Below are positions 33,911 through 62,900 of a stretch of DNA of 64,000 nt, in pieces. The stretch spans positions 10,416,001-10,480,000 of the forward strand of contig NC_134031.1 in the NCBI RefSeq assembly GCF_964204645.1, in the 5' to 3' direction. A model generated the notes under the pieces. That model was not told where the DNA came from, ran no database searches, and saw only the letters and a list, made by a program, of their open reading frames with translations. The position numbers and the translations under genes are program-made. The first letter of the stretch is position 1. The number at the start of each line of letters is the position of its first letter. This stretch comes from Tubulanus polymorphus (taxonomy: Eukaryota; Animalia; Nemertea).

Positions 33911-36900
33911 CTGACGATTTGAGCGCTTTTACATTGTCATTTTTCCGACAGAGGAAAAATTTGATAAGAAAACGTCTTTTCTCTGGCTGAACGACGTTTT
34001 CGGGTCGAAAAGTGCTTTTCCTGACGATTTAAGCGCTTTTAAGCATCGACATTGTCATTTTTGCGACAGGGGGAAAATTTGGTAAGAAAACGTCTTTTCT
34101 CGCGCTGAACGACGTTTTCGGGACGAAAAGTGCTTTTCCTGACGATTTAAGCGCTTTCACGCATCGACATTGTCATTTTTCCGACAGGGGGGGGGGGGGG
34201 GAAATTTGATAAGAAAACGTCTTTTCTCGCGGTGAACGACGTTTTCGGGTCGAAAAGTGCTTTTCCTGACGATTTGAGCGCTTTTACGCATCGACATTGT
34301 CATTTTTCCGACAGGGGGGAAATTTGATAAGAAAACGTCTTTTCTCGCGCTGAACGACGTTTTCGGGTCGAAAAGTGCTTTTCCTGACGATTTGAACGCT
34401 TTTACGCATCGACATTGTCATTTTTCCGACAGGGGAAGAATTTGATAAGAAAACGTCTTTTCTCGCGCTGAACGACGTTTTCGGGTCGAAAAGTGCTTTT
34501 CCTGACCATTTGAACGCTTTTACGCATCGACATTGTCATTTTTCCGACAGGGGGAAAATTTTATAAGAAAACGTCTTTTCTCGCGGTGAACGACGTTTTC
34601 GGGTGAAAAGTGCTTTTCCTGACGATTTGAGCGCTTTTACGCATCGACATTGTCATTTTTCCGACAGGGGAATAATTTGATAAGAAAACGTCTTTTCTCG
34701 CGCTGAACGACGTTTTCGGGTCGAAAAGTGCTTTTCCTGACGATTTGAACGCTTTTACGCATCGACATTGTCATTTTTCCGACAGGGGGAAAATTTGGTA
34801 AGGAAACGTCTTTTCTCGCGCTGAACGACGTTTTCGGGTCGAAAAGTGCTTTTCCTGACGATTTGAGCGCTTTTACGCATCGACATTGTCATTTTTCCGA
34901 CAGGGGAAAAATTTGATAAGAAAACGTCTTTTCTCTGGCTGAACGACATTTTCGGGTCGAAAAGTGCTTTTCCTGACCATTTGAACGCTTTTACGCATCG
35001 ACATTGTCATTTTTCCGACAGGGGGAAAATTTGATAAGAAAACGTCTTTTCTCTGGCTGAACGACGTTTTCGGGTCGAAAAGTGCTTTTCCTGACGATTT
35101 AAGCGCTTTTAAGCATCGACATTGTCATTTTTCCGACAGGGGGAAAATTTGATAAGAAAACGTCTTTTCTCGCGGTGAACGACGTTTTCGGGTCGAAAAG
35201 TGCTTTTCCTGACGATTTGAGCGCTTTTACGCATCGACATTGTCATTTTTCCGACAGGGGAAAAATTTGATAAGAAAACGTCTTTTCTCGCGGTGAACGA
35301 CGTTTTCGGGTCGAAAAGTGCTTTTCCTGATGATTTGAGCGCTTTTACGCATCGACATTGTCATTTTTCCGACAGGGGAATAATTTGATAAGAAAACGTC
35401 TTTTCTCGCGCTGAACGACGTTTTCGGGTCGAAAAGTGCTTTTCCTGACGATTTGAACGCTTTTACGCATCGACATTGTCATTTTTCCGACAGGGGGAAA
35501 ATTTGGTAAGAAAACGTCTTTTCCGCGCTGAACGACGTTTTCGGGTCGAAAAGTGCTTTTCCTGACGATTTAAGCGTTTTTTACGCATCGACATTGTCAT
35601 TTTTCCGACGGGGGAAAATTTTATAAGAAAACGTCTTTTCTCGCGGTGAACGACGTTTTCGGGCCGAAAAGTGCTTTTCCTGACGATTTGAACGCTTTTA
35701 CGCATCGACATTGTCATTTTTCCGACGGGGGAAAAATTTGATAAGAAAACATCTTTTCTCGCGCTGAACGACATTTTCGGGTCGAAAAGTGCTTTTCCTG
35801 ACCATTTGAACGCTTTTACGCATCGACATTGTCATTTTTCCGACAGGGGGAAAATTTGATAAGAAAACGTCTTTTCTCTGGCTGAACGACGTTTTCGGGT
35901 CGAAAAGTGCTTTTCCTGACGATTTAAGCGCTTTTAAGCATCGACATTGTCATTTTTCCGACAGGGGGAAAATTTGATAAGAAAACGTCTTTTCTCGCGG
36001 TGAACGACGTTTTCGGGTCGAAAAGTGCTTTTCCTGACGATTTAAGCCTTTTTTACGCATCGACATTGTCATTTTTCCGACGGGGGAAAATTTTATAAGA
36101 AAACGTCTTTTCTCGCGGTGAACGACGTTTTCGGGCCGAAAAGTGCTTTTCCTGACGATTTGAACGCTTTTACGCATCGACATTGTCATTTTTCCGACGG
36201 GGGAAAAATTTGATAAGAAAACATCTTTTCTCGCGCTGAACGACATTTTCGGGTCGAAAAGTGCTTTTCCTGACCATTTGAACGCTTTTACGCATCGACA
36301 TTGTCATTTTTCCGACAGGGGGAAAATTTGATAAGAAAACGTCTTTTCTCTGGCTGAACGACGTTTTCGGGTCGAAAAGTGCTTTTCCTGACGATTTAAG
36401 CGCTTTTAAGCATCGACATTGTCATTTTTCCGACAGGGGGAAAATTTGATAAGAAAACGTCTTTTCTCGCGGTGAACGACGTTTTCGGGTCGAAAAGTGC
36501 TTTTCCTGACGATTTGAGCGCTTTTACGCATCGACATTGTCATTTTTCCGACAGGGGAAAAATTTGATAAGAAAACGTCTTTTCTCGCGGTGAACGACGT
36601 TTTCGGGTCGAAAAGTGCTTTTCCTGATGATTTGAGCGCTTTTACGCATCGACATTGTCATTTTTCCGACAGGGGAATAATTTGATAAGAAAACGTCTTT
36701 TCTCGCGCTGAACGACGTTTTCGGGTCGAAAAGTGCTTTTCCTGACGATTTGAACGCTTTTACGCATCGACATTGTCATTTTTCCGACAGGGGGAAAATT
36801 TGGTAAGAAAACGTCTTTTCCGCGCTGAACGACGTTTTCGGGTCGAAAAGTGCTTTTCCTGACGATTTAAGCGCTTTTACGCATCGACATTGTCATTTTT

Positions 36901-39900
36901 CCGACGGGGGGGGGGAAATTTGATAAGAAAACATCTTTTCTCGCGCTGAACGACATTTTCGGGTCGAAAAGTGCTTTTCCTGACCATTTGAACGCTTTTA
37001 CGCATCGACATTGTCATTTTTCCGACAGGGGGAAAATTTGATAAGAAAACGTCTTTTCTCTGGCTGAACGACGTTTTCGGGTCGAAAAGTGCTTTTCCTG
37101 ACGATTTAAGCGCTTTTAAGCATCGACATTGTCATTTTTCCGACAGGGGGAAAATTTGATACGAAAACGTCTTTTGTCGCGCTGAACGACGTTTTCCCGT
37201 CGAAAAGTGCTTTTCCTGACGATTTGAGCGCTTTTACGCATCGACATTGTCGTTTTTCCCATAGGGGGAATATTTGATACGAAAACGTCTTTCCTCGCGC
37301 TGAACGACGTTTTCGCGTCGAAAAGTGCTTTTCCTGACGATTTGAGCGCTTTTACGCATCGACATTGTCGTTTTTCCCATAGGGGGAATATTTGATACGA
37401 AAACGTCTTTTCTCGCGCTGAACGACGTTTTCGCGTCGAAAATTGCTTTTCCTGACGATTTGAGCGCTTTTACGCCTCAACATTGTCGTTTTTCCCATTG
37501 GGGGAATATTTGATACGAAAACGTCTTTTGTCGCGCTGAACGACGTTTTCGCGTCGAAAAGTGCTTTTCCTGACGATTTGAGCGCTTTTACGCATCGACA
37601 TTGTCGTTTTTCCCATAGGGGGAATATTTGATACGAAAACGTCTTTTCTCGCGCTGAACGACGTTTTCGCGTCGAAAAGTACTTTTCCTCACGATTTGAG
37701 CGCTTTTACGCATCGACATTGTCGTTTTTCCCATAGGGGGAATATTTGATACGAAAACGTCTTTTCTCGCGCTGAACGACGTTTTCGCGTCGAAAAGTGC
37801 TTTTCCTGACGATTTGAGCGCTTCAACTCATCGACATTGTCGTTTTTCCCATAGGGGGAATATTTGATACGAAAACGGGTTTTCTCGCGCTGAACGACGT
37901 TTTCGCGTCGAAAAGTGCTTTTCCTGACGATTTGAGCGCTTTTACGCATCGAAATTGCCGTTTTTCCGATAGGGGGAATATTTGAAACGAAAACGTCTTT
38001 TCTCGCGCTGAACGACGTTTTCGGGTCGAAAAGTGCTTTTCCTGACGATTTGAGCGCTTTTACGCATCGACATTGTCGTTTTTCCCATAGGGGGAATATT
38101 TGATACGAAAACGTCTTTTCTCGCGCTGAACGACGTTTTCGCGTCGAAAAGTGCTTTTCCTGACGATTTGAGCGCTTTTACGCATCGACATTGCCGTTTT
38201 TCCGATAGGGGGAATATTTGAAACGAAAACGTCTTTTCTCGCGCTGAACGACGTTTTCGGGTCGAAAAGTGCTTTTCCTGACGATTTGAGCGCTTTTACG
38301 CATCGACATTGTCGTTTTTCCCATAGGGGGAATATTTGATACGAAAACGTTTTTTTCTCGCGCTGAACGACGTTTTCGGGTCGAAAAGTGGTTTTCCTGA
38401 CGATTTGAGCGCTTTTACGCATCGACATTGTCGTTTTTCCCATAGGGGGAATATTTGATACGAAAACGTCTTTTCTCGCGCTGAACGACGTTTTTGGGTC
38501 GAAAAGTGCTTTTCCTGACGATTTGAGCGCTTTTACGCATCGACATTGTCGTTTTTCCCATAGGGGGAATATTTGATACGAAAACGGGTTTTCTCGCGCT
38601 GAACGACGTCTTCGCGTCGAAAAGTGCTTTTCCTGACGATTTGAGCGCTTTTACGCATCGAAATTGTCGTTTTTTTTTCCCATAGGGGGAATATTTGATA
38701 CGAAAACGTCTTTTCTCGCGCTGAACGACGATTTCGCGTCGAAAATTGCTTTTCCTGACGATTTGAGCGCTTTTACGCATCGACATTGTCGTTTTTCCCA
38801 TAGGGGGAATATTTGATACGAAAACGTCTTTTCTCGCGCTGAACGACGTTTTCGGGTCGAAAAGTGCTTTTCCTGACGATTTGAGCGCTTTTACGCATCG
38901 ACATTGTCGTTTTTCCCATAGGGGGAATATTTGATACGAAAACGTCTTTTCTCGCGCTGAACGACGTTTTCGGGTCGAAAAGTGCTTTTCCTGACGATTT
39001 GAGCGCTTTAACGCATCGACATTGTCGTTTTTCCCATAGGGGGAATATTTGATACGAAAACGTCTTTTGTCGCGCTGAACGACGTTTTCCCGTCGAAAAG
39101 TGCTTTTCCTGACGATTTGAACGCTTTTACGCATCGACATTGTCGTTTTTCCCATAGGGGGAATATTTGATACGAAAACGTCTTTTCTCGCGCTGAACGA
39201 CGTTTTTGGGTCGAAAAGTGCTTTTCCTGACGATTTGAGCGCTTTTACGCATCGACATTGTCGTTTTTCCCATAGGGGGAATATTTGATACGAAAACGGG
39301 TTTTCTCGCGCTGAACGACGTCTTCGCGTCGAAAAGTGCTTTTCCTGACGATTTGAGCGCTTTTACGCATCGAAATTGTCGTTTTTTTTTCCCATAGGGG
39401 GAATATTTGATACGAAAACGTCTTTTCTCGCGCTGAACGACGTTTTCGCGTCGAAAATTGCTTTTCCTGACGATTTGAGCGCTTTTACGCATCGACATTG
39501 TCGTTTTTCCCATAGGGGGAATATTTGATACGAAAACGTCTTTTCTCGCGCTGAACGACGTTTTCGGGTCGAAAAGTGCTTTTCCTGACGATTTGAGCGC
39601 TTTTACGCATCGACATTGTCGTTTTTCCCATAGGGGGAATATTTGATACGAAAACGTCTTTTCTCGCGCTGAACGACGTTTTCGGGTCGAAAAGTGCTTT
39701 TCCTGACGATTTGAGCGCTTTAACGCATCGACATTGTCGTTTTTCCCATAGGGGGAATATTTGATACGAAAACGTCTTTTGTCGCGCTGAACGACGTTTT
39801 CCCGTCGAAAAGTGCTTTTCCTGACGATTTGAACGCTTTTACGCATCGACATTGTCGTTTTTCCCATAGGGGGAATATTTGATACGAAAACGTCTTTTCT

Positions 39901-40433
39901 CGCGCTGAACGACGTTTTCGCGTCGAAAAGTGCTTTTCCTGACGATTTGAGCGCTTTTACGCATCGACATTGTCGTTTTTCCCATAGGGGGAATATTTGA
40001 TACGAAAACGTCTTTTGTCGCGCTGAACGACGTTTTCCCGTCGAAAAGTGCTTTTCCTGACGATTTGAGCGCTTTTACGCATCGACATTGTCGTTTTTCC
40101 CATAGGGGGAATATTTGATACGAAAACGTCTTTCCTCGCGCTGAACGACGTTTTCGCGTCGAAAAGTGCTTTTCCTGACGATTTGAGCGCTTTTACGCAT
40201 CGACATTGTCGTTTTTCCCATAGGGGGAATATTTGATACGAAAACGTCTTTTCTCGCGCTGAACGACGTTTTCGCGTCGAAAAGTACTTTTCCTGACGAT
40301 TTGAGCGCTTTTACGCATCGACATTGTCGTTTTTCCCATAGGGGGAATATTTGATACGAAAACGTCTTTTCTCGCGCTGAACGACGTTTTCGCGTCGAAC
40401 AGTGCTTTCGCGTCGAACGTCTTTTCTCGCGCT
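33911..40433. repeat. 118-bp satellite array, left part (variant A to about 37150, then variant B)
   Basis: Tandem CTGACGATTTGAGCGCTTTTACGCATCGACATTGTC...GAAAAGTGCTTTTC. Confidence 0.98.
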
Positions 40434-40553
40434 AGTAATTGGGAAAGTAGGCTTTCATACCAAAGTACGAAGTACGAGACACCACTCATCACCACAAGTA
40501 ATTTTTTTCCTAACACTCATCACCACAAGTAATTTTTTTTCCTAATAAATGGG
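40434..40553 (+). repeat. Polinton left TIR
   Basis: Matches the reverse complement of 56794-56913 with one mismatch seen. Confidence 0.95.
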
Positions 40554-43500
40554 GGAGAATGAACACCAACTAGAAAACAATAATGTCAATAAAAATCAAT
40601 ATTATTTTCAATATTGTAAAAAATACATCGATAAATCTAATAAATCTAAACATGAAAAATCTTCAGATCATATAAAAAATGTTATAGATTTTGAAACTCC
40701 AGAAAATTCCATTGAAAGAAAAGAACGATTAGAATATATGAATGTGGATGAAATAAAATGTGAAGTTTGTGATGAATTTATAACAAAAAGGAATTATAAT
40801 AAACATCTCGAAACAGAAAAACACCATCAAAATTTGAGAAATAATGTTTTAGGAATAGATTATTTTGATGATAAACCTCAACAAGTAAAAGAATCAACTT
40901 CAAAAACTAAATCCATTTCAAATAAACCTTACATGGAAAATATTAGAAATTATATTGATTCACTAGAAATAAAAGATACAATTGAAATCTTAGAAACATT
41001 ACATAGTAAAATTGGTCCTGCAGCTATTATATTTAGATTTTTTAAAGGTACAACAATAGAAGATTATAGTAAATTTAATGAAATAATAGAAAAAATACTA
41101 GATTTGATAACAGATGTTGAATATCCAAAAATTAGTATCTCTGGGAAAGTAAGTTTTATAAAGTCAGAAGAAAAAATGGATTATAATATTCAAACACACT
41201 CTGAAGAAATAATTTCAAAAACACAAATAAAAGAGAAGTTAGAAAAAATATTAAATGAATTTAAACGTCATATTGAAGAAAGATATTTTGAGGGTTCTGG
41301 CTTAACATTGAATGAAATTATATATTTAGATTTAAATGTTTATAATACAAAAAGGAATAAAACATCAAAATGTAATAAAATGTTTAAAAATGATTCAAAC
41401 TTTACAACAGAAAAGGATATGAAAGCATCAAGTTATATCAAATTACCGTTTACAACAAAAGCAGTAATAAATATTCAAAATGAAGATAATAAATGTTTTC
41501 TATGGTCAATTATTAGTTGTTTACACCAAACAGAAGATATGACACATAGTTTTAGAATAACAAATTACCGGAAATATGAAACATTATATAAAATTGATCA
41601 ATATCCAGTAACTATAAAAATGATTCCTAAAATAGAAAAAGTTAATAATTTAAAAATAAATGTATTCGAATTAATGCAATTACCAAAAACAAAAGGTGAA
41701 AATATTAAAGATTATACATTGGAAGCTGTATATTTAACAGAATAATATGATGATGAAAATGCTATAGATTTGTTATATTACAAAAAAGATGAAAATGAAC
41801 ATTATATGTGGTTAAAACAAATTGATTTATTCTTTAGAACAGAAAGTGATCATCATAATAAAATTTATCTATGTAGAAAATGTTTATCCAAATTTATGAC
41901 TGAGAATACATTATTAAAACATAAAGAATTATGTGATAATAAAGATTTTTGTAAATTAATAATGCCAACAGAAAAAGATTATAAATTGAAATTTACTAAT
42001 TATAAATTTGAAAATATTGTTCCATTTGTAATTTATGGGGATTTTGAATCGTTGAATAAAGAATTAACTGATCAAGATAGAAAAGAAATATATAACAAAA
42101 AGCAATTATTAAAATCAATGGATAAAGGAAATGAATTAAATGAAGACACAATACAAGACCCACCAATTATAAATACAATTAAAAAAGTTCATCAAAGAGC
42201 TGCTGCTTATGGAATTTACATCAAATCAAATTATCCCGAATTATATGAAAGTCAATATATTTCTTTTAGAGGTGAAAATGTAGTTAATGATTTTTGTGAT
42301 AAAATGATTGAATTAGAAAGTGATTTTACAAAATTATTAAACAAAAATAAAAGAATAGTTATGACAAAAGAAGATGAAATTGATTTTAATTATGCAACTC
42401 ATTGTTGTTATTGTGAAAAACGTTTTTATTCATTTGATAAAAGAGTTAGAGATCATGATCATTTGAATTCAAAATATCGTGGAGCTGCTCATGAAGATTG
42501 CAATTTACAAGCTAAGAAAGTTAATTTCGTACCAATATTATTTCATAATTTATCAGGCTATGATACCCATCTATTTATAAAACAATTATCAGGAAAATTG
42601 GGCGCAATTAATCAAGAAATAGAAGAATATAATGCTATGAATGAAGCAAATGTAAGAAAATATGATTTTAAACTATTAGCTAAAACATCTGAAAATTATA
42701 TTTCATTTCAATTTGGTTGCATTAGATTTTTAGATTCTTATAGATTTCTAGCAAGTTCATTAGATAATTTATCAAAAAGTTTAGTTGATAATGATTTTGT
42801 TATAACTCGATATTATTATCCAAATGAACAAGATTTTAAATTATTGAGATATAAAGGCGCAATTCCTTATTCATTTTATAAAACACATGATGATTTTAAT
42901 GTAACAGAATTATTAAAAGATCAATTTTATGATCAATTAAAAGAGGAGTATGTGAAAGACGAAGTGTTTAATAGAACATTAAATATTTGGAACCATTTTA
43001 AGATGAAAAATCATGGCGAATTAGTTGATTTATATTTAAAATCAGATGTTATGATATTGGCTGACATATTTGAAAAATTTAGAGAAGTTAATTTGAATCA
43101 TTTTAATGTTGATCCTTGTTATTGTTATTCAAGTCCTGGTTTAACCTGGCAATGTGGTTTAAAATATACAAATGTAGAATTAGATTTATTAAAAGAACCA
43201 GATATGGTTTTATTATTTGAAAAATCAATTAGAGGTGGAATTAGTGGTGTTATGGGAGATAGGTATTTTAAAGCAAATGATGAATATAAATTATTATATA
43301 TTGACGCCAATAATTTATATGGTTGGGCAATGATGCAACCTCAACCATATAAAAATTTTATATTAACAGAAGTTGAAAATGATGATAAAACTAATTGGGA
43401 AAGCGCAATTATGAGTTTAGAAGATGAAGCACCAATTGGTTATTTCTTTGTAGTTGATTTAGAATATCCTGATAACATAAAGTTTAAAACAAGAAACTTA

Positions 43501-45618
43501 CCTTATTGCCCAGAACATTTAACTGTAGATGATAGTTATTTAAGTGAATACCAGAAGAAAATAAAACCGAAAGATCATGTTTTTACAGAAAAATTAATAC
43601 TTACTCAAAATAATAAATACAATTATATTGTTCATTATAGAATGTTAAAATTTTATCTAAAACAAGGAATGAAATTAAAGAAAGTACATAGATATATTGA
43701 ATTTAATCAATCAAAGTGGTTAGAAAAATATATAGATTTCAATACTCAACAGAGAACCATATCAAAAACAGATTTTGAAAAAGATTTCTTCAAATTAATG
43801 AACAATAGTTTTTATGGTAAAACATGTGAAAATATTAGAAATAGAAATGATATTGAATTAGTAAATAATTCTGAACGATTGAGACACCTACAATCAAGTC
43901 CTAGACATTTAGGAAATAAAAGATTTGAAGATTATTTAACAGCAGTAAAATTAAAAAGAACGTCAATGAAATTTAATAAACCCATTTTCATTGGTTCAAC
44001 AGTTTTAGAAATATCAAAATTATTAATGTATGATTTTTATTACAATGTATTACAACCATTGTTTGGGGAAAAACATATAGAAATTCTATACTTCGATTCT
44101 GTAACAGCTGACACCCCAATATTATTAAAATACAATAACCAAATATTAATTAGAAGAATTTCAGAAATAATTCCTAATCAAAATAAATCTTATATTTCAT
44201 ATGGTGAAAAAGAACTAATACAAATAAATGGTTTAATAGATGTTTGGACAAGAAATGGATGGAAAAAATTAAAGAATATTATTAGACATAAAACAAATAA
44301 GAAAATCTATAGAGTTAGAACTAAATTAGGATTTGTAGATGTTACTGAAGACCACAGTTTAATTAAACGAAATGGTGATGAAATAAAACCAACTGATATA
44401 AAAATTGGAGATGAATTATTACATAAAAGATTTTTCCCAAGAATGAATCATATGTCATTTGATGAAATAATTGATAATATTTATAATATAGAACCCGAAA
44501 CATTGGAAGAAAAAGAATATTTTATCAAAGGATTTTTCATGGGTGATGGTTCAGCAGGTGTGTATAATTATATTTGGGGTAATAAATATTGTTGGTATTT
44601 ATGCAATCAAGACTTAAAATTATTAGAAAGAATTAAGAAATTCTGTGAAGAAGTTTATTCACATAAAACATTTAGAATCATGGATGTTATGAAATCATCA
44701 GCAGTTTATAGAATACTTGTAAATAATCCTAAAGATTTTGCTATAGAATATAATGATGAATTCTATATTCATGCAATAGTGAAAAGTAATACTTCAACTA
44801 AAGAAAAAATAGTACCAGATTATATATTAAATTCAGAATATAATCTTAGAAAATGGTTCTTCATTGGGTTCTACGCAGCTGATGGTACTAAAAAATTTAC
44901 AAAGGATAAAACGATAACCTTTGCACAGAAAGGAAAATGTGCAATAAGTGGGTTAAATGTGTTATGCAGTTCATTAGGCTTCAATATGAATATTGGATTG
45001 ATTAAATCTAAACCAAATTGCTTTAATTTAAGGCATGTAGAAAAAGATTTAACTGAAGAAGTTAAAGATTTATTTGAAATATATAACCCAACTGATTATG
45101 TTTATGATTTATCAACAGATGATGGAACATTCAATTCTGGGTTCCCATTAATCCAAAAAAATACGGATGCGTACATACTAAAAATCAAGACAAATGACAT
45201 AACAAAAGACTTAAAAACATTAAAACATCATTTTGATTTTAGCAATTATCCTAAAGATCATGAACTATTTAGCAATGATAATAAAAAGATTCCTGGTAAA
45301 TTTAAAGATGAATTAGGAGGTGATGAAATGATTGAATTTGATGGGATAAGAAGTAAAATGTATAGTTACAGAACAAAAGATCATGAAGCTAAAAAGTTAA
45401 AAGGAATAACAAAACATGTGGTTGATAAACATATAGAATTTCAAGATTATATAAAGTGTTTATATAAATCAATTGTAATGAAACACAAGATGAATTGTTT
45501 AAGATCAGAAAATCATGAGATGTACATTAATGAAGTTGAAAAAACTAGTTTAAATCCATTTGATGATAAAAGGCATATTTCAGATGATGGTATAAAAACA
45601 TTACCTTATGGCCATTAA
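40549..45618 (+). CDS. polB: Protein-primed family B DNA polymerase, intein-containing, with one in-frame TAA at 41743-41745
   Basis: ExoI IYGDFES, ExoII FHNLSGYD, ExoIII YLKSDV, motif A YIDANNLYGWAM, motif B KLMNNSFYGK, motif C YFD|TDA; ORFs 40549 and 41770 share a frame; N-terminal zinc finger and OTU-like KCFLWS...HY. Confidence 0.93.
42403..42504 (+). other. Endonuclease VII-like His-Me finger inserted in the pPolB exonuclease domain
   Basis: CCYC...VRDHDHLNSKYRGAAHEDCN. Confidence 0.7.
44098..45162 (+). mobile_element. Intein (355 aa) with LAGLIDADG homing endonuclease
   Basis: Block A SVTADTPI, block B VTEDHSL, block C FIKGFFMGDGS, block E FFIGFYAADGT, block F YVYDL, terminal KN with +1 Thr. 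Confidence 0.95.
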
Positions 45619-45881
45619 AACATAAAATCAATATCATCATACTCGAAATCACTATTGGCTTCTTCATTTTCATTTAATTGTTCAGGTTCTTCTTCCATTA
45701 CATTTTTCTCATTTAAATAAAGTTCTATCTTGTTCCACATTTCATCTCGCTCTCTTTGTTTCTTTTTGTTTGTTAATTCATCAAATGGAATTATAATATC
45801 TAGGTTTAAATAATTTACAATCTTATTTAAAAAGAATTCATAATTTATTGAATCTGTTATTCTATTTTCCAAATGATACAT
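45615..45881 (-). CDS. Small hypothetical protein with acidic tail
   Basis: 88-aa ORF packed between neighbouring genes. Confidence 0.55.
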   Translation of the reverse strand: MYHLENRITDSINYEFFLNKIVNYLNLDIIIPFDELTNKKKQRERDEMWNKIELYLNEKNVMEEEPEQLNENEEANSDFEYDDIDFMF

Positions 45882-45891
45882 TAATATTTGT

Positions 45892-46917
45892 TTAAATATT
45901 TTTTTTTATATTTTCCATATCTTCTTCTGTTAATTTAGGTTTTTCATAATAATCGTTAAATAATAAATATAAATACATTTTCTTTTGTTTTGTGTTAAAT
46001 GTTGGTGGAATAATTGTTTTTATAATATCTTTTTTAGTTATTTCACCATTTTTATTTTCTATTATTTTCATTTTTTCAAGCCATTGCATATATTCTGGTG
46101 TATTATCTTCTATAGAAAATATTTTAAAAATTTCATCTAGATAATTAAATTTTGGTTCTATGAGAAAATCTCTAGTTTTTTCTTCACCCCATAAATTCTT
46201 TTGCCATCCACATTCAACACAAAATAACACAGTACCTTCTTGCCTTAAGGTCGCATAACTACATTGTGGGCATTTTTGTTTATAATTTCTTGGTAATAGA
46301 TCTTCATTAAGCTCTTGGTATTTTCTTACGTTTTCTTTATGTTTTATTGTTCTATTATGTAGATTTGAATTACTTGTTGTAATAATCAATTTACAATATT
46401 TACAATAATATGTTTTTCTTGTTAATTCATTATATTGTTTTTCTAACTTTTCAACTGTTTCTTCATTATCTGGTAACGTTTTCTCATATTTTATTTTTTC
46501 TAATAAATTATTTTTTCTTGCATTGAATTCAGTTTCAAATTTATTAGAAATTTTATCTATATGTGCTTTACGAAATTGATGATTCTCCCAATCTTCTATA
46601 TTTTCAAGGCTATATTTTATTCGACAAGGCTCACAGAAATGATCTTTTATATTATCCTTATCATAGTATAAGAAAGGTCTTTTCCAAATAACTTCAGGTT
46701 CAACTTCAGCAGAATTACTATCAACATTAGCCGTTGCGCCATTAATTCTACACTTCTCTGAATGTTTTTTAACATAATTTCTTGAGAATAATTTATTACA
46801 TTTTGGACAGTTTATTTTAGGGGGTTTATAATTTTCATTATGTTTTTTCATATGTCGAGCCATATTACTTTTTCTTAGAAGTTCACCACAAATTTCGCAT
46901 GCTATCTTCTCATCCAT
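45892..46917 (-). CDS. Multi-zinc-finger protein
   Basis: CEICG..MARHMKKH, CPKC, CEPC..H..H, CKYC..H..H, CPQC..CVEC; TAAATG start. Confidence 0.8.
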   Translation of the reverse strand: MDEKIACEICGELLRKSNMARHMKKHNENYKPPKINCPKCNKLFSRNYVKKHSEKCRINGATANVDSNSAEVEPEVIWKRPFLYYDKDNIKDHFCEPCRIKYSLENIEDWENHQFRKAHIDKISNKFETEFNARKNNLLEKIKYEKTLPDNEETVEKLEKQYNELTRKTYYCKYCKLIITTSNSNLHNRTIKHKENVRKYQELNEDLLPRNYKQKCPQCSYATLRQEGTVLFCVECGWQKNLWGEEKTRDFLIEPKFNYLDEIFKIFSIEDNTPEYMQWLEKMKIIENKNGEITKKDIIKTIIPPTFNTKQKKMYLYLLFNDYYEKPKLTEEDMENIKKNI

Positions 46918-46985: not shown

Positions 46986-47743
46986 ATGGTAGAATTAAAA
47001 GAATACAGAATATTTGTTGATTCTAGAAAACTTCAAATTATAAATCTCATAATTTACTAGTACAATTAGATAGAGAATTTAAGAATTGTGTAGATTTAAA
47101 ATTAGTTAATATAAGTTTATGTAATTCTTTTTATAATATATCGGATAAAAGTCTAGAACATTTAATTTTTTCAATCTTTTACAAAAAAAGGAATAAATGG
47201 TTTTTTATATATTTAAAACCAGGATTATATAATTTAGATACATTAACACAAGAAATTAATAGAAAAGCTCGAGCTAAATTAGGAAGTGATTCCGGATTTA
47301 GTATTAGAATTTTAAAAAGTGCTAGTTCTAATAAAATAAAGATTAGGTTAGCTAATGACGAACAATTTAAATTTACAATAAGAAAACCTTTAGCTAAACT
47401 GTTAGGAATTGCACCAGATACCGTTACAGCATACGCAGAAGGTAACTCAAATATAATACCTTTTACACACTTTTATATTTATTGCAATTTAATCGATCCT
47501 ACAAAAACATTTGAAGCAACTAAAGATACAATTTGTAATTCTGGTTTATTAAATATTTTACCATTAAAAAATGTCAAACAATTCGGAACTCAAATAAATT
47601 ATAATTTAACTGAATGTGATTTCAAACCTTGTATTCCACATTTCAATAATTTTAAATTAGAAATAAGAAATCATAATGGTTATTTAATTGATTTGAATAA
47701 CTTTCCTGTAATTTATGAATTAGTTATAAGATGTAAAGAGTAA
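46986..47743 (+). pseudogene. Minor capsid protein (penton), 1-nt frameshift; absent from the ORF track
   Basis: MVELKEYRIFVDSRK, then another frame: LCNSFYNI..LKPGLYN..LAKLLGI..FYIYCNLI..LLNILP..LEIRNHNGYLIDLNNFPVIYELVI*. Confidence 0.75.
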
Positions 47744-48113: not shown

Positions 48114-48116
48114 TAA

Positions 48117-52090: not shown

Positions 52091-53338
52091 ATGAGTGGGA
52101 GTTATATAAGTCCTTCAAAGATTTCTAGAATATCTAATGCTATTAAAGCAGAAAGATCACATCATATAATTACTCATAACCCTTCAAATATTAATCCCGA
52201 TGAAACTTTATACGTTAGAATCCCTCGATTAACACAAAATACTTTTTATGTTCCAAATAGTATTTATTTATCAGCCGATATAAAAGTAACTGGCCATGAT
52301 AACAATTATGTTGTTGATAATGTTGGAAGATATTTGATTAAAAAATTAACTATAAAGATTGGTCCGGAAACAGTTTTCTCATTAGATGATTATAATTTAT
52401 TTATGCATTATAAAGATTTATGGTTAACTAAAGAAAATAGAAATAATATGATATTTCAAGGCATCCAATCGGAAAACCATAATAAATTAAGATCTGAAGC
52501 CAATAATGCAGTAGTAACTCGTGCCACAGATAATTTGATTAAAAAGATTTATGGAAGCAAATATAAAATTCCATTAGACTTTGAATTGATAAATAATAAT
52601 GCACCTTTATATAAATACGCAATTCAAGAAGATATTATATTTGAGATAACATTTGCTCCTGTAAATGAAATTGTATTATCTAGCGTTGTTAAAGATATGG
52701 GTTATAAATTATCGAATATATGTTTAGAATATAACACAGTAACTAATGAAAATATTGCTAGCACAATTCAAACTCAATACAATCAAGGATTTTCATTATT
52801 ATATGATTATATTGATAAATTTAAAACTGTAACTATTAATGCAAATGATGAAATAATTAATGAGAATATTAACTTTCCTAGAAGATCTATTAAAGGTATA
52901 TTAATACTTTTTACTATTGCAACATATTCTAATGGTGCAATAAATGTTGATAATTATTATAATCCTGAAATAACAAAAGTAGAAATAACTATTGAAGGTA
53001 TAGCGAATAAAATATTTTGTCAAGGAATGAGAATGATTGATCAATGGTCAGAAATTAAAAAACATTTTATGAATGAAAAAGTAAAATCATTTGAAAATTG
53101 TAATATTAATCAAATTGATTATTATACCGGTAATAAATATGCATTATGGTTAGATTTTAGAACAACTGAAGATAATTCATTACATGGTTCTGGAAAAAAA
53201 CTACAGAACACTAAAGATGGAATACAATTATTCATGAAAAAGAATAAAGGAATCAAAAATTTTAAAATGCACATTTATATTATATCTGACGCACAATTAA
53301 ATATTGTAAATTCACAATTAGATAGTATTCAATATTAG
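52091..53338 (+). CDS. Major capsid protein (double jelly-roll)
   Basis: 415 aa, beta-strand-rich pattern (TLYVRIP, LSADIKV, LIKKLTIKIG, IIFEITFAP, LSNICLEY, ITKVEITIEG, ALWLDFR); size and context fit. Confidence 0.8.
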   Translation: MSGSYISPSKISRISNAIKAERSHHIITHNPSNINPDETLYVRIPRLTQNTFYVPNSIYLSADIKVTGHDNNYVVDNVGRYLIKKLTIKIGPETVFSLDDYNLFMHYKDLWLTKENRNNMIFQGIQSENHNKLRSEANNAVVTRATDNLIKKIYGSKYKIPLDFELINNNAPLYKYAIQEDIIFEITFAPVNEIVLSSVVKDMGYKLSNICLEYNTVTNENIASTIQTQYNQGFSLLYDYIDKFKTVTINANDEIINENINFPRRSIKGILILFTIATYSNGAINVDNYYNPEITKVEITIEGIANKIFCQGMRMIDQWSEIKKHFMNEKVKSFENCNINQIDYYTGNKYALWLDFRTTEDNSLHGSGKKLQNTKDGIQLFMKKNKGIKNFKMHIYIISDAQLNIVNSQLDSIQY

Positions 53339-53368: not shown

Positions 53369-54496
53369 ATGAGTGGTAAAAAAACTCCTAATATTAAAGA
53401 ACAATATTTAAGAAATTTATATTACAACCCTGAGAGTTCGGTTGCTTATTCTTCTACTAAAAATATATGGCGTAAAGTAAAACAAGATAAATTAGATAAG
53501 ATAATCCCACAAAATTTAGTTAAATATAAAGATATAAATGAATTTATGTTAGAACAACCAACATATACAACACATAAAAAAATTGTTAGAAAATATAAAA
53601 CTCGTAAAACTATGGTAAGTTATGTAGATCAACAGTGGCAAGGAGAATTAATTGATATGAAAAATGTTAAGAAAGATAATGATGATTATTGGTGGTTATT
53701 GAATATAATTGATATTTTTAGTCGTTATGTATGGAGCTTCCCACTTTATAGAAAAGATGCTGTACAAACATCAAATGTTTTAAGAAAATTTCTTTCGGAT
53801 GATAAACTAAAACCAGAAAAAATACAATTTGATGATGGAAAAGAATTTGATAATTCACTTGTTCATGGACTTTTAGATTTTCATAATATTAAATATTTTT
53901 CAACAAAATCGGATAAAAAAGCAGCAGTTGTTGAACGATTTAATAGAACATTAAGAACAAGAATGTGGAAATATTTTACAGCAAATAATACTTTTAAATG
54001 GATTGATGTTTTACCAAAATTGATAGAAGGATATAATAATTCTTATCATTCTTCTATTGGAATGAAACCTATTGATGCTAGAAAACCTGAAAATGCTGAA
54101 ATTGTTTGGAATAATTTATATGGAGCATTTCTTGTAGATGATTTTGGTGAACCTAAATTTAAAGTTGGTCAAAATGTTAGAATTTCTAAGTATAAAAAGA
54201 TATTTGATAAAGGATACGATCGAAATTTTACTAGAGAAATATATAAAATAAAAAAGGTAATAACAACTAAACCATATGTCTATAAATTAGAAGATTTAGA
54301 TGGTGAAGAAGTTGATGGATATTTTTATGAAGAAGAATTAAGTTTAACTACTGAAAATCTAGAACAAGAATATAAAATTGAAAAAGTACTAAAAACAAAA
54401 ACTATTAAAAGAAAAAAATATTCTTTAGTAAAATGGGTTGGATGGCCAGATAAATTCAATGAATGGATATTATCAAGTAAAATTAAAAATATATAA
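53369..54496 (+). CDS. Retroviral-like (rve) integrase with C-terminal chromodomain
   Basis: QWQGELIDM, IDIFSRY, QFDDGKEF, VVERFNRTLR, YNNSYHSSIGMKP; YKIEKVL...LVKWVGWPDKFNEW. Confidence 0.93.
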   Translation: MSGKKTPNIKEQYLRNLYYNPESSVAYSSTKNIWRKVKQDKLDKIIPQNLVKYKDINEFMLEQPTYTTHKKIVRKYKTRKTMVSYVDQQWQGELIDMKNVKKDNDDYWWLLNIIDIFSRYVWSFPLYRKDAVQTSNVLRKFLSDDKLKPEKIQFDDGKEFDNSLVHGLLDFHNIKYFSTKSDKKAAVVERFNRTLRTRMWKYFTANNTFKWIDVLPKLIEGYNNSYHSSIGMKPIDARKPENAEIVWNNLYGAFLVDDFGEPKFKVGQNVRISKYKKIFDKGYDRNFTREIYKIKKVITTKPYVYKLEDLDGEEVDGYFYEEELSLTTENLEQEYKIEKVLKTKTIKRKKYSLVKWVGWPDKFNEWILSSKIKNI

Positions 54497-55105
54497 ATGA
54501 ATAAGGAATTATTCATATTTGAGCCTCATAATATGTTAATTTCTGGCGTAACAAATTGTGGAAAAACTTATTTCATATTAAATTTATTAGAAACTGTTTA
54601 TAAAAACTATTTTGATAATATAGTATTATTTTGTCCAACATATGAATTTAATCAAACTTATGATAGAAATATTACTAGGAATAATAAATTTATTATATTA
54701 GATCCTAAAACAGTAAAAGAAAATTTAGATAATTGTATAAAAATAGCAATTGATATTTATAAAGGATCAAATACATTATTTATCATAGATGATTGTGCAA
54801 ATTTACATGATTCAAAAATTAGAGAAAGTGAGTTATGCTATTTAGCTTTCTCTGGGAGACATTTTGGGATAACAACTTGGGTTTTAAATCAAAAATATAA
54901 TTCAATTGTTAAAGACTTTAGAGAAAACATTAGATTTCTAGTTTTATTCTACAATAAAGATAGAAAATCAATGAAAAATGCACTTGAGGAAAATGATATT
55001 ATTCCACATGATTTACATAATGAATATATGGATAAGTTGAAAAATATTAAAAGATCAAAATTACTATTTAGATTACAACACCCATTTAAATATGTATTTA
55101 TTTAA
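54497..55105 (+). CDS. A32-like FtsK-HerA packaging ATPase
   Basis: Walker A GVTNCGKT, Walker B FIIDD, GRHFGITTWVLNQ. Confidence 0.92.
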   Translation: MNKELFIFEPHNMLISGVTNCGKTYFILNLLETVYKNYFDNIVLFCPTYEFNQTYDRNITRNNKFIILDPKTVKENLDNCIKIAIDIYKGSNTLFIIDDCANLHDSKIRESELCYLAFSGRHFGITTWVLNQKYNSIVKDFRENIRFLVLFYNKDRKSMKNALEENDIIPHDLHNEYMDKLKNIKRSKLLFRLQHPFKYVFI

Positions 55106-56471: not shown

Positions 56472-56798
56472 TTAATCAACAATTTCTAAATCATGATGAC
56501 CGTCTTCATTTTTCCCATGATATATTATTTTAAATCCTACTAAATCTTTCAATTCCTCCGTACTCAATGAAACCCATTTATCGGGTAAAAACACTTTAAA
56601 TTCTCGTGATGTACTAACATTACAGTAGCTTAAATTAGCTGATACTTTCTCTCCATATTTAGTTTTTATCTTTTCTAATTTCAATATTTTATGTTCAATT
56701 TCTTTTGTAACATCAACTAACTTTTTTATTTCAAATTGTTTTTTTGCTGGTTTTATTCTGTTATTTATTGTTGCTAAGAATGCTTTTCTATCTCCCAT
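56472..56798 (-). CDS. Terminal small protein, possibly OB-fold
   Basis: KTKYGEKVSANL...KVFLPDKW; ATG lies inside the right TIR. Confidence 0.65.
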   Translation of the reverse strand: MGDRKAFLATINNRIKPAKKQFEIKKLVDVTKEIEHKILKLEKIKTKYGEKVSANLSYCNVSTSREFKVFLPDKWVSLSTEELKDLVGFKIIYHGKNEDGHHDLEIVD

Positions 56799-56913
56799 TT
56801 ATTAGGAAAAAAAATTACTTGTGGTGATGAGTGTTAGGAAAAAAATTAATTGTGGTGATGAGTGGTGTCTCGTACTTCGTACTTTGGTATGAAAGCCTAC
56901 TTTCCCAATTACT
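56794..56913 (-). repeat. Polinton right TIR
   Basis: Reverse complement of 40434-40553. Confidence 0.95.
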
Positions 56914-59900
56914 CGCGCTGAACGACGTTTTCGCGTCGAAAAGTGCTTTTCCTGACGATTTGAGCGCTTCAACTCATCGACATTGTTGTTTTTCCCATAG
57001 GGGGAATATTTGATACGAAAACGTCTTTTCTCGCGCTGAACGACGTTTTCGCGTCGAAAAGTGCTTTTCCTGACGATTTGAGCGCTTTTACGCATCGACA
57101 TTGCCGTTTTTCCGATAGGGGGAATATTTGAAACGAAAACGTCTTTTCTCGCGCTGAACGACGTTTTCGGGTCGAAAAGTGCTTTTCCTGACGATTTGAG
57201 CGCTTTTACGCATCGACATTGTCGTTTTTCCCATAGGGGGAATATTTGATACGAAAACGTTTTTTTCTCGCGCTGAACGACGTTTTCGGGTCGAAAAGTG
57301 CTTTTCCTGACGATTTGAGCGCTTTTACGCATCGACATTGTCGTTTTTCCCATAGGGGGAATATTTGATACGAAAACGTCTTTTCTCGCGCTGAACGACG
57401 TTTTCGGGTCGAAAAGTGGTTTTCCTGACGATTTGAGCGCTTTTACGCATCGACATTGTCGTTTTTCCCATAGGGGGAATATTTGATACGAAAACGTCTT
57501 TTCTCGCGCTGAACGACGTTTTTGGGTCGAAAAGTGCTTTTCCTGACGATTTGAGCGCTTTTACGCATCGACATTGTCGTTTTTCCCATAGGGGGAATAT
57601 TTGATACGAAAACGTCTTTTCTCGCGCTGAACGACGTTTTCGCGTCGAAAAGTACTTTTCCTGACGATTTGTGGGCTTTTACGCATCGACATTGTCGTTT
57701 TTCCCATAGGGGGAATATTTGATACGAAAACGTCTTTTCTCGCGCTGAACGACGTTTTCGCGTCGAAAAGTGCTTTTCCTGACGATTTGAGCGCTTCAAC
57801 TCATCGACATTGTCGTTTTTCCCATAGGGGGAATATTTGATACGAAAACGTCTTTTCTCGCGCTGAACGACGTTTTCGCGTCGAACAGTGCTTTTCCTGA
57901 CGATTTGAGCGCTTTTACGCATCGACATTGTCTTTTTTCCCATAGGGGGAATATTCGATACGAAAACGTCTTTTCTCGCGCTGAACGACGTTTTCGGGTC
58001 GAAAAGTGGTCTTCCTGACGATTTGAGCGCTTTTACGCATCGACATTGTCGTTTTTCCCATAGGGGGAATATTTGATACGAAAACGTCTTTTCTCGCGCT
58101 GAACGACGTTTTCGCGTCGAAAAGTGGTTTTCCTGACGATTTGAGCGCTTTTACGCATCGACATTGTCGTTTTTCCCATAGGGGGAATATTTGAAACGAA
58201 AACGTCTATTCTCGCGCTGAACGACGTTTTCGGGTCGAAAAGTGCTTTTCCTGACGATTTGAGCCCTTTTACGCATCGACATTGTCGTTTTTCCCATAGG
58301 GGGAATATTTCATACGAAAACGTCTTTTCTCGCGCTGAACGACGTTTTCGGGTCGAAAAGTGGTTTTCCTGACGATTTGAGCGCTTTTACGCATCGCCAT
58401 TGTCGTTTTTCCCATAGGGGGAATATTTTATACGAAAACGTCTTTTCTCGCGCTGAACGACGTTTTCGCGTCAAAAAGTACTTTTCCTGACGATTTGAGG
58501 GCTTTTACGCATCGACATTGTCGTTTTTCCCATAGGGGGAATATTTGATACGAAAACGTCTTTTCTCGCGCTGAACGACGTTTTTGGGTCGAAAAGTGCT
58601 TTTCCTGACGATTTGAGCGCTTTTTCGCATCGACATTGTCGTTTTTCCCATAGGGGGAATATTTGATACGAAAACGTTTTTTTCTCGCGCTGAACGACGT
58701 TTTCGGGTCGAAAAGTGGTTTTCCTGACGATTTGAGCGCTTTTACGCATCGACATTGTCGTTTTTCCCATAGGGGGAATATTTGATACGAAAACGTCTTT
58801 TCTCGCGCTGAACGACGTTTTCGGGTTGAAAAGTGGTTTTCCTGACGATTTGAGCGCTTTTACGCATCGACATTGTCGTTTTTCCCATAGGGGGAATATT
58901 TGATACGAAAACGTCTTTTCTCGCGCTGAACGACGTTTTTGGGTCGAAAAGTGCTTTTCCTGACGATTTGAGCGCTTTTTCGCATCGACATTGTCGTTTT
59001 TCCCATAGGGGGAATATTTGATACGAAAACGGGTTTTCTCGCGCTGAACGACGTTTTCGCGTCGAAAAGTGCTTTTCCTGACGATTTGAGCGCTTTTACG
59101 CATCGAAATTGTCGTTTTTCCCATAGGGGGAATATCTGATACGAAAACGTCTTTTCTCGCGCTGAACGACGTTTTCGGGTCGGAAAGTGCTTTTTTTGAC
59201 GATTTGAGCGCTTTTTCGCATCGACATTGTCGTTTTTCCCATAGGGGGAATATTTGATACGAAAACGGGTTTTCTCGCGCTGAACGACGTTTTCGCGTCG
59301 AAAAGTGCTTTTCCTGACGATTTGAGCGCTTTTACGCATCGAAATTGTCGTTTATCCCATAGGGGGAATATTTGATACGAAAACGTCTTTTCTCGCGCTG
59401 AACGACGTTTTCGCGTCGAAAAGTGCTTTTCCTGACGATTTGAGCGCTTTTACGCATCGCCATTGTCGTTTTTCCCATAGGGGGAATATTTGAAACGAAA
59501 ACGTCTATTCTCGCGCTGAACGACGTTTTCGGGTCGAAAAGTGCTTTTCCTGACGATTTGAGCCCTTTTACGCATCGACATTGTCGTTTTTCCCATAGGG
59601 GGAATATTTGATACGAAAACGTCTTTTCTCGCGCTGAACGACGTTTTCGCGTCAAAAAGTACTTTTCCTGACGATTTGAGGGCTTTTACGCATCGACATT
59701 GTCGTTTTTCCCATAGGGGGAATATTTGATACGAAAACGTCTTTTCTCGCGCTGAACGACGTTTTCGCGTCGAAAAGTGCTTTTCCTGACGATTTGAGCG
59801 CTTTTACGCATCGACATTGTCGTTTTTTTTTCCCATAGGGGGAATATTTGATACGAAAACGTCTTTTCTCGCGCTGAACGACGTTTTCGCGTCGAAAATT

Positions 59901-62900
59901 GCTTTTCCTGACGATTTGAGCGCTTTTACGCATCGACATTGTCGTTTTTCCCATAGGGGGAATATTTGATACGAAAACGTCTTTTCTCGCGCTTAACGAC
60001 GTTTTCGGGTCGAAAAGTGGTTTTCCTGACGATTTGAGCGCTTTTACGCATCGACATTGTCGTTTTTCCCATAGGGGGAATATTTGATACGAAAACGTCT
60101 TTTCTCGCGCTGAACGACGTTTTCGCGTCGAAAAGTGCTTTTCCTGACGATTTGGGCGCTTCAACTCATCGACATTGTCGTTTTTCCCATAGGGGGAATA
60201 TTTGATACGAAAACGTCTTTTCTCGCGCTGAACGACGTTTTCGGGTCGAAAAGTGGTTTTCCTGACGATTTGAGCGCTTTTACGCATCGAAATTGTCGTT
60301 TTTCCCATAGGGGGAATATTTGATACGAAAACGTCTTTTCTCGCGCTGAACGACGTTTTCGCGTCGAAAAGTGCTTTTCCTGACGATTTGAGCGCTTTTA
60401 CGCATCGACATTGTCGTTTTTTTTTCCCATAGGGGGAATATTTGATACGAAAACGTCTTTTCTCGCGCTGAACGACGTTTTCGCGTCGAAAAGTGGTTTT
60501 CCTGACGATTTGAGCGCTTTTACGCATCGACATTGTCGTTTTTCCCATAGGGGGAATATTTGAAACGAAAACGTCTATTCTCGCGCTGAACGACGTTTTC
60601 GGGTCGAAAAGTGCTTTTCCTGACGATTTGAGCCCTTTTACGCATCGACATTGTCGTTTTTCCCATAGGGGGAATATTTCATACGAAAACGTCTTTTCTC
60701 GCGCTGAACGACGTTTTCGGGTCGAAAAGTGGTTTTCCTGACGATTTGAGCGCTTTTACGCATCGCCATTGTCGTTTTTCCCATAGGGGGAATATTTTAT
60801 ACGAAAACGTCTTTTCTCGCGCTGAACGACGTTTTTGCGTCAAAAAGTACTTTTCCTGACGATTTGAGGGCTTTTACGCATCGACATTGTCGTTTTTCCC
60901 ATAGGGGGAATATTTGATACGAAAACGTCTTTTCTCGCGCTGAACGACGTTTTTGGGTCGAAAAGTGCTTTTCCTGACGATTTGAGCGCTTTTTCGCATC
61001 GACATTGTCGTTTTTCCCATAGGGGGAATATTTGATACGAAAACGTTTTTTTCTCGCGCTGAACGACGTTTTCGGGTCGAAAAGTGGTTTTCCTGACGAT
61101 TTGAGCGCTTTTACGCATCGACATTGTCGTTTTTCCCATAGGGGGAATATTTGATACGAAAACGTCTTTTCTCGCGCTGAACGACGTTTTCGGGTTGAAA
61201 AGTGGTTTTCCTGACGATTTGAGCGCTTTTACGCATCGACATTGTCGTTTTTCCCATAGGGGGAATATTTGATACGAAAACGTCTTTTCTCGCGCTGAAC
61301 GACGTTTTTGGGTCGAAAAGTGCTTTTCCTGACGATTTGAGCGCTTTTTCGCATCGACATTGTCGTTTTTCCCATAGGGGGAATATTTGATACGAAAACG
61401 GGTTTTCTCGCGCTGAACGACGTTTTCGCGTCGAAAAGTGCTTTTCCTGACGATTTGAGCGCTTTTACGCATCGAAATTGTCGTTTTTCCCATAGGGGGA
61501 ATATCTGATACGAAAACGTCTTTTCTCGCGCTGAACGACGTTTTCGGGTCGGAAAGTGCTTTTTTGACGATTTGAGCGCTTTTTCGCATCGACATTGTCG
61601 TTTTTCCCATAGGGGGAATATTTGATACGAAAACGGGTTTTCTCGCGCTGAACGACGTTTTCGCGTCGAAAAGTGCTTTTCCTGACGATTTGAGCGCTTT
61701 TACGCATCGAAATTGTCGTTTATCCCATAGGGGGAATATTTGATACGAAAACGTCTTTTCTCGCGCTGAACGACGTTTTCGCGTCGAAAAGTGCTTTTCC
61801 TGACGATTTGAGCGCTTTTACGCATCGCCATTGTCGTTTTTCCCATAGGGGGAATATTTGAAACGAAAACGTCTATTCTCGCGCTGAACGACGTTTTCGG
61901 GTCGAAAAGTGCTTTTCCTGACGATTTGAGCCCTTTTACGCATCGACATTGTCGTTTTTCCCATAGGGGGAATATTTGATACGAAAACGTCTTTTCTCGC
62001 GCTGAACGACGTTTTCGCGTCAAAAAGTACTTTTCCTGACGATTTGAGGGCTTTTACGCATCGACATTGTCGTTTTTCCCATAGGGGGAATATTTGATAC
62101 GAAAACGTCTTTTCTCGCGCTGAACGACGTTTTCGCGTCGAAAAGTGCTTTTCCTGACGATTTGAGCGCTTTTACGCATCGACATTGTCGTTTTTTTTTC
62201 CCATAGGGGGAATATTTGATACGAAAACGTCTTTTCTCGCGCTGAACGACGTTTTCGCGTCGAAAATTGCTTTTCCTGACGATTTGAGCGCTTTTACGCA
62301 TCGACATTGTCGTTTTTCCCATAGGGGGAATATTTGATACGAAAACGTCTTTTCTCGCGCTTAACGACGTTTTCGGGTCGAAAAGTGGTTTTCCTGACGA
62401 TTTGAGCGCTTTTACACATCGACATTGTCGTTTTTCCCATAGGGGGAATATTTGATACGAAAACGTCTTTTCTCGCGCTGAACGACGTTTTCGCGTCGAA
62501 AAGTGCTTTTCCTGACGATTTGGGCGCTTCAACTCATCGACATTGTCGTTTTTCCCATAGGGGGAATATTTGATACGAAAACGTCTTTTCTCGCGCTGAA
62601 CGACGTTTTCGGGTCGAAAAGTGGTTTTCCTGACGATTTGAGCGCTTTTACGCATCGAAATTGTCGTTTTTCCCATAGGGGGAATATTTGATACGAAAAC
62701 GTCTTTTCTCGCGCTGAACGACGTTTTCGCGTCGAAAAGTGCTTTTCCTGACGATTTGAGCGCTTTTACGCATCGACATTGTCGTTTTTCCCATAGGGGG
62801 AATATTTGATACGAAAACGTCTTTTCTCGCGCTTAACGACGTTTTCGGGTCGAAAAGTGGTTTTCCTGACGATTTGAGCGCTTTTACACATCGACATTGT

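Follow-up and report, generated by a model that had tools for sequence, protein, structure and literature searches.

A Polinton in a satellite array

The window, i.e., the whole 64,000-nucleotide stretch of DNA analyzed here, contains a 16,480-bp Polinton (40434–56913) in which the gene for the protein-primed DNA polymerase (pPolB) is interrupted by an intein (44098..45162, plus strand). The element begins with AGT and ends with ACT, and an inverted-repeat search delimited its left (40434..40556, plus strand) and right (56791..56913, minus strand) terminal inverted repeats (TIRs), each ~120 bp long, within 128-nt inverted arms that are 98% complementary. It is bordered by an exact 6-bp target-site duplication, CGCGCT, at 40428..40433 and 56914..56919 (both plus strand). 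Published Polinton criteria include TIRs, a 5–8 bp target-site duplication, and a size of 13–25 kb (passages cited from bioRxiv 2023.08.22.554363), a range within which this element falls. The polymerase gene (40549..45618, plus strand; PF03175, E 4e-19) has a frame broken once. The same strand encodes an rve integrase with a C-terminal chromodomain (53369..54496; PF00665 above cut-off, PF00385 weak) and an A32-like packaging ATPase (54497..55105; PF04665, E 3e-13). Together, the TIRs, 6-bp duplication, pPolB, integrase, and ATPase confirm the Polinton pPolB proposed as host gene in an initial sequence-only reading of this DNA.

The remaining Polinton genes are less clear-cut. A 415-aa protein (52091..53338, plus strand) is a likely double jelly-roll major capsid protein based on Atlas clusters and weak Pfam similarity: Atlas matches at 0.97 lead to clusters in which 14–24% of members carry Capsid_N, while the Pfam Capsid_N match itself is weak (E 0.035) and a single-sequence model reached a pLDDT of 30. 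The putative minor capsid gene (47027..47743, plus strand) is a guess from size and position with a weak DUF5901 match; its frame has no in-frame ATG and an apparent frameshift by its start, a second apparent lesion in this element at ~47025. A zinc-finger protein is encoded on the minus strand (45892..46917; zf-U1, E 7e-7), and directly downstream of it a small minus-strand ORF (45618–45905) gave a Pox_VLTF3-like match (E 3.7e-5); these two ORFs are perhaps one gene broken in the window copy. No adenain-type protease was found by motif or by Pfam match in the Polinton ORFs scanned, a set that omits some short ones of the 39 ORFs, and a divergent protease could escape detection.

On both sides, the Polinton is flanked by arrays of a 118-bp satellite, to the left at 33931..40433 (TRF, 54.7 copies, 94% matches) and, in unchanged orientation, to the right at 56914..64000 (TRF, 60 copies, 95% matches). 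This satellite contains a CpG-rich near-palindrome and is covered ~24,000× in X6, a raw read set from a separate study carrying the same species label; it is possibly centromeric, and no exact match to it was found in viral contigs. The exact CGCGCT duplication, with satellite continuing on both sides, indicates a true integration, as had been proposed from the sequence. Further left, a HECT-domain gene outside the Polinton (11330..12653, plus strand) matches XP_074659475.1 of Tubulanus polymorphus, encoded on a 14.3-Mb contig: the first 51 of 51 residues are identical, followed by 7 differences over ~389 residues (~98%), while the next of 11 matches reaches 43%. This gene lies 28 kb from the Polinton, within a transposon with long inverted repeats. 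Specifically, the interval 8786–17380 is an 8.6-kb HECT-bearing DNA transposon with long, internally repetitive inverted ends, in which the HECT gene contains a stop codon (11829–11831) and has a PHD-like ORF close by. Also observed in the window were a minus-strand run of ORFs at 17497–22311, among them a MULE/SWIM-like transposase (Atlas 0.94) and one of 533 aa that resembles a cysteine protease by eye and has no Pfam match, as well as MITE-like elements at 27704–30044 and 2779–3334 with inverted arms of 234 nt and 253 nt, respectively. None of nine window proteins had an exact copy in the protein collection.

These data bear on whether the element belongs to the animal at all. It might derive from a symbiont, a parasite, a contaminant, or a mis-assembly, in which case no intein would reside in an animal chromosome. 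The Polinton has a GC content of ~24% compared to 33–45% for most of its surroundings, the HECT gene that matches T. polymorphus is a transposon gene that differs from the database copy, and Polinton-like contigs of animal data sets can be contaminants (passages cited from PMC8502044). In addition, the satellite–TIR junction of the window copy was spanned by none of the reads or contigs listed, X6 pieces included, and no single-copy host gene was seen. However, the 6-bp satellite duplication is exact at both ends with satellite orientation unchanged and the window is free of N, satellite and element are both abundant in the separately generated X6 reads, and the HECT protein is ~98% identical to a T. 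polymorphus protein when the next match stands at 43%. We thus give a foreign or artifactual origin very little credence. The animal chromosome suggested in the sequence-only reading accordingly stands as likely, on the basis of the duplication within satellite, the T. polymorphus protein match, and the reads sharing satellite and element: the Polinton is likely integrated in a satellite array of a chromosome of the ribbon worm T. polymorphus (Nemertea).

A full-length intein in polymerase motif C

The insert is a full-length intein of 355 aa, combining a Hint domain with a two-motif LAGLIDADG homing endonuclease, as recognized from profiles, translation, and model. It comprises 355 uninterrupted codons preceded by ILYFD and followed by TDAYIL, interrupts the polymerase within motif C (YFD|TD), and parts the two Asp of this motif by 355 residues. 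The translation starts with SVTADTP(I), stops with PLIQKN, and includes TEDH, IKGFFMGDG, KIVP, FIGFYAADG, and YVYDL in between, reproducing every element initially listed at this locus, i.e., the split motif C, the open insert, Ser1, TEDH, both LAGLIDADG motifs, VYDL, the terminal Asn, and the +1 Thr.

All residues expected for class 1 splicing are present (coordinates on the plus strand): the block A nucleophile Ser1 (44098..44100), the block B TxxH motif, here TEDH at residues 83–86 (44344..44355), the block F Asp337 in VYD (45100..45108), and a C-terminal junction made of Lys354, Asn355, and the +1 extein Thr (45157..45165). The endonuclease domain includes LAGLIDADG motif 1 (IKGFFMGDG, 44524..44550; acidic residue D150, model helix 136–150) and motif 2 (FIGFYAADG, 44860..44886; acidic residue D262, model helix 248–262), so that both helices retain their acidic residues alongside a conserved Lys237 (44806..44808), presumably the endonuclease block D lysine with the role it has in LAGLIDADG inteins. 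Across 44 aligned sequences, S1, T83, D85, H86, D150, K237, V335–D337, and N355 were invariant.

Profile searches agreed in part with the Hint and LAGLIDADG assignment of the sequence-only reading: TIGR01445 intein_Nterm (33.9 bits, cut-off 24.5) and Pfam LAGLIDADG_3 (27.5 bits, cut-off 22.5) passed, but Pfam Intein_splicing, despite an E-value of 5e-7, scored 30 bits and thereby fell short of the 35.8 bits required. A phmmer comparison of the intein with PI-PkoII yielded an E-value of 1.7e-6. An AlphaFold model built on the 44-row alignment (pLDDT 93.8, pTM 0.92) predicts a complete Hint fold with a LAGLIDADG domain inserted, and its closest PDB structures are full homing-endonuclease inteins, namely 2cw7 (PI-PkoII, E 5.5e-17), 7qsu, and 7qst. 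A profile search of solved structures mostly matched PolB exteins.

Three other identities for the insert were considered and rejected. A chance ORF is ruled out by TIGR01445 and LAGLIDADG_3 scores above cut-offs and by a confident model resembling inteins, an intron-encoded endonuclease by the continuous frame and protein-splicing junctions, and a Hedgehog-type Hint domain by the two LAGLIDADG motifs and the terminal Asn|Thr junction.

One usual class 1 feature is absent: the penultimate residue is Lys354, not His. A penultimate His is usual but not universal in inteins, and the last two residues of 96 extracted relatives, near-duplicates included, were KN in 41, HN in 48, and SN in 7. The Lys could also be read as the mark of a non-splicing accessory nuclease domain that stays in the polymerase after maturation, comparable to HNH and VSR domains of Polinton polymerases. 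Inserted nucleases have been published for pPolB (passages cited from bioRxiv 2023.08.22.554363 and PMC11161782), and some relatives of the window polymerase carry an Endonuclease_7-like domain. Yet a retained insert would leave the Asp pair of motif C 355 residues apart, all other splicing residues are kept within a complete predicted Hint fold, and KN ends are common in this allele group (41/96). Of the alternatives examined, we consider a non-splicing domain the least probable, with barely any weight, and retain the splicing intein as our reading.

A precise empty site at the pol-c position

Homologs lacking the insert show where it starts and ends. The four nearest polymerases, 71–84% identical, are insert-free at this site: KHIEIMYFDTDSYILK. 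Since these empty relatives read across the exact site, both intein junctions are fixed. When the 120 best pPolB relatives were scored by alignment, 110 were empty and four filled (two whole, two truncated), while the remaining six comprised one tandem duplication without intein and five sequences that stop short of the site. The alignment to intein-free pPolB proposed along with the sequence-only reading hence yielded a precise empty site in 110 of 120 relatives.

The position itself is a familiar one. As had been noted from the sequence, D|T of motif C is the pol-c site, read as YGD|TDS in Mimivirus and archaea (passages cited from PMC549080), and most of the related inteins extracted here sit at YxD|TD. 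By site and by likeness to the inteins found there, we assign the window intein to the pol-c allele. In P0128, P0130, and 33 of the 110 empty relatives, D-C-D-S takes the place of D-T-D-S in motif C, and site changes of this kind could represent escape from the endonuclease.

A multicopy family with a damaged window copy

In X6, read depth was ~325× over the N-extein and ~343× over the C-extein; within the intein, it was ~225× at 44199–44801 and ~90× at 44802–45002. Reads were mostly 95–99% identical to the window Polinton. These depths indicate a multicopy Polinton family, in which the intein seems to be kept by most copies, at a minimum over its first two-thirds. With a genome size of 313–358 Mb for T. 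polymorphus (passages cited from PMC8468679), and if all X6 reads are from the host, the family would amount to roughly 50–60 copies. The dip to ~90× may reflect some copies with diverged or deleted endonuclease parts, and no intein-skipping joint was found among the 15 joints listed out of 76 in X6.

The window copy of the polymerase carries a single premature stop (41743–41745, codon 399), upstream of the intein; the ORF before it shares 62% identity with the N-terminal part of P0297, a relative whose frame is unbroken. Because this stop precedes the polymerase domains, the window copy is likely dead and its polymerase non-functional, although its intein is intact. At codon 399, 262 of 270 X6 reads differ from the window copy, hence the lesion is likely private to it. 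The initial claim that the polymerase works only after splicing would therefore be expected to hold for intact family members and not for the copy in the window.

A distinct intein clade with signs of homing

To what extent this intein is mobile can be gauged from its relatives. Among the best 120 long proteins with a related intein, 8 were protein-primed polymerases, most others RNA-primed PolB, and a few topoisomerase II or thymidylate synthase. The same allele group occupies D|TD in topoisomerase II or thymidylate synthase in P0007, P0105, P0108, P0121, and P0029, which indicates that it moves between genes. A search of 50% representatives returned 2,112 matches; among 140 newly listed proteins, a pPolB extein was seen in P0308 alone, which is truncated and 75% identical. 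Two further observations concern individual sequences: a related intein occupies the same motif in P0120, DNA polymerase delta of Chloropicon primus, already included in PMC10710043 (passages cited), and P0176, a close Polinton polymerase, is labelled Sulfurimonas sp. in UniRef and is probably a binning contaminant.

The pPolB inteins formed one clade both in a quick 76-row tree, obtained by dropping 20 near-duplicates or fragments from 96 sequences (9/9 rows, SH-aLRT 100), and in a 38-row tree (8/8 rows, support 100/100), both intein trees being unrooted. They are 42–77% identical to each other, and all eight retain the acidic residues of both LAGLIDADG motifs and the conserved Lys. A tree of 11 filled and 31 hand-picked empty exteins required at least 8 changes, and forcing the filled exteins together was rejected (AU p 6.8e-87).

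The proposed survey of other Polintons revealed two further families in which filled alleles coexist with empty ones. Among the 15 listed members of a 136-member cluster of ENA proteins, on contigs of up to 1.0 Mb, 7 were filled, 6 empty, and 2 off-site, and the 15 listed members of a 121-member cluster comprised 5 filled, 1 empty, and 9 off-site sequences. Many copies on long contigs suggest that these intein-bearing relatives reside in eukaryotic chromosomes. Polinton genes were found at none of 117 intein loci of viral and metagenome contigs (37 and 80 loci), and a polymerase scan of viral contigs yielded three loci, none with the insert. Individual pairs can be very similar outside the intein: filled P0139 and empty P0142 differ at 6/577 and 0/169 extein residues. 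Between filled P0122 and empty P0134, a single difference was found across 1,011 distal N-extein residues, compared to 4 in the last 7 N-extein residues and 12 in the 150 residues downstream, a pattern that would fit homing and co-conversion from a diverged donor. Finally, P0005 carries an intein of the same clade, and its pPolB is so divergent that it does not align with the window polymerase; an intein jump between polymerase lineages is needed here.

Some of these patterns could also arise if the intein splices but has lost homing, i.e., through an old entry followed by vertical descent, recurrent exact loss, and routine recombination among copies. Among HNH-type polymerases, the intein tree is broadly congruent with the extein tree, an agreement that would be compatible with long vertical descent and repeated loss as well. 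The pPolB inteins are just 42–77% identical, and the lower depth across the second half of the endonuclease may reflect decay. With only four of 120 close polymerases filled, however, very many exact losses would be required; moreover, endonuclease catalytic residues are intact in 8/8 inteins, P0122 and P0134 differ mostly at the insertion site, and P0005 requires transfer between distant polymerase lineages. Loss of homing thus strikes us as unlikely, while retaining more weight than a foreign origin of the element.

Outside Polintons, the nearest relatives point to giant viruses. Inteins from giant-virus metagenome-assembled genomes (MAGs) were up to 42% identical to the window intein, with the insert following YGD at 10/10 MAG loci examined, and giant-virus polymerases were the best viral fold matches of the intein. 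We infer a giant-virus donor from the diversity of that group and from these MAG and polymerase matches, on trees that are unrooted. Likely, the intein lineage found in Polintons goes back to a single transfer from giant-virus-type PolB pol-c inteins, or has an ancestor in common with them, and then spread among Polintons. That its nearest outside relatives are giant-virus-type PolB inteins in the same motif suggests that such viruses and Polintons shared cells and exchanged DNA.

Predicted splicing and homing

Taken together, we consider it probable, with fairly high confidence, that the locus holds an intein in motif C of the pPolB of a satellite-integrated Polinton, likely in a ribbon worm, with predicted Ser/Asn/Thr splicing and likely homing into empty copies. 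In an intact copy, the polymerase would first be made as an intein-containing precursor. Ser1, aided by TxxH, would then attack the upstream bond, the N-extein would pass to Thr+1, and Asn355 would cyclize, steps that follow standard intein chemistry (passages cited from PMC7765530). The rejoined D-T-D would restore the metal-binding site of the polymerase, and for this reason replication of intact copies should depend on splicing. Once released, the endonuclease would cleave polB alleles that lack the intein, either in other chromosomal copies or in co-infecting Polinton genomes, and repair off the filled copy would bring in the intein along with some flanking DNA. Endonuclease cutting and intein copying are predicted because the catalytic residues are kept and filled/empty pairs exist.

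We put at roughly even chances the broader scenario in which actively homing inteins of one clade reached animal chromosomes by way of Polintons, with copying among the dispersed Polintons of one germ line, drag of flanking polymerase sequence, and jumps from one distant Polinton lineage to another. If true, this would be the first intein family to live and move within the nuclear genomes of animals, and also the first for protein-primed polymerases. An intein that is intact and part of a multicopy element on an animal chromosome offers a route across the animal gap in intein distribution, and the old question of whether animal cells allow inteins to splice, to home, and to persist now becomes testable. 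Filled and empty alleles within one family serve as a natural archive of homing among dispersed repeat copies, and the intein itself is a candidate new splicing reagent.

Comparison with known systems

Eukaryotic intein surveys cover fungi, algae, protists, and giant viruses, and animal inteins are absent from the passages cited (PMC5784728, PMC10710043, PMC7765530); nuclear, chloroplast, and viral inteins are listed in PMC5784728, with no animal ones in that part. The passages cited from PMC12220804, PMC3671162, PMC11131425, and PMC13768754 contain nothing on inteins in Polintons or animal chromosomes, and “intein” occurs 0 times in the main animal-Polinton papers (nematode, coral, adintovirus). 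The words Polinton, Maverick, animal, and metazoa are absent from the main text of PMC10710043, whose data sets could list such inteins. In the literature searched, a scope that excludes subscription journals, Repbase-type annotations, and supplements, neither Polintons nor animal chromosomes were reported to carry a Hint-domain intein. Within that literature, the earlier statement that inteins are not known from animal nuclear genomes is upheld, and pol-c LAGLIDADG inteins of the protein-primed polymerases of Polintons, here likely in a nemertean chromosome, are apparently undescribed so far.

The carrier resembles published Polintons/Mavericks (adintoviruses) in TIRs, 6-bp duplication, pPolB, rve integrase, ATPase, and likely capsid (passages cited from bioRxiv 2023.08.22.554363, PMC11161782, and PMC8502044), and differs in that no adenain protease was found. 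HNH and VSR inserts are reported in Polinton pPolB (bioRxiv 2023.08.22.554363), and pPolB nuclease domains were suggested to come from intein invasions (PMC11161782). In the passages cited, these published inserts are nuclease domains, with no Hint domain or active-site interruption described and an intein or intron origin only suggested. An HNH-like motif is also found in the window polymerase family.

Animals have their own Hint domains, in Hedgehog and Hog proteins, which share the Hint fold and autoprocessing chemistry (passages cited from PMC5784728 and PMC7765530). They differ in lacking endonuclease, extein ligation, and mobility, whereas the window insert has two LAGLIDADG motifs and an Asn|Thr end.

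Inteins of viruses provide closer parallels. The host gene of the Chilo iridescent virus intein is that of ribonucleotide reductase. This Gln-type intein of an insect-infecting iridovirus (passages cited from PMC549080) is likewise an intein in an animal DNA virus; unlike the present one, it belongs to a free giant virus that is not chromosomally integrated. Mimivirus and archaeal PolB pol-c inteins (passages cited from the same source) are alike in motif C site, Ser…Asn|Thr residues, TxxH, and homing endonuclease, but lie in RNA-primed PolB, compared to a protein-primed polymerase (PF03175) here, in an element that is small and integrates. The Polinton inteins also form their own clade.

Finally, for Klebsormidium, Tetrabaena, and a labyrinthulid, inteins have been reported in endogenous viral polymerases that lie on nuclear scaffolds (passages cited from PMC10710043). 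There as here, the nuclear genome was entered inside an integrated viral polymerase gene, and the window intein similarly rides in a gene of an endogenous virus and does not interrupt one of the host itself. Those hosts, however, are algae and a protist, whereas the intein described here sits in a multicopy, integrase-bearing Polinton, likely of an animal, with filled and empty alleles in related families.
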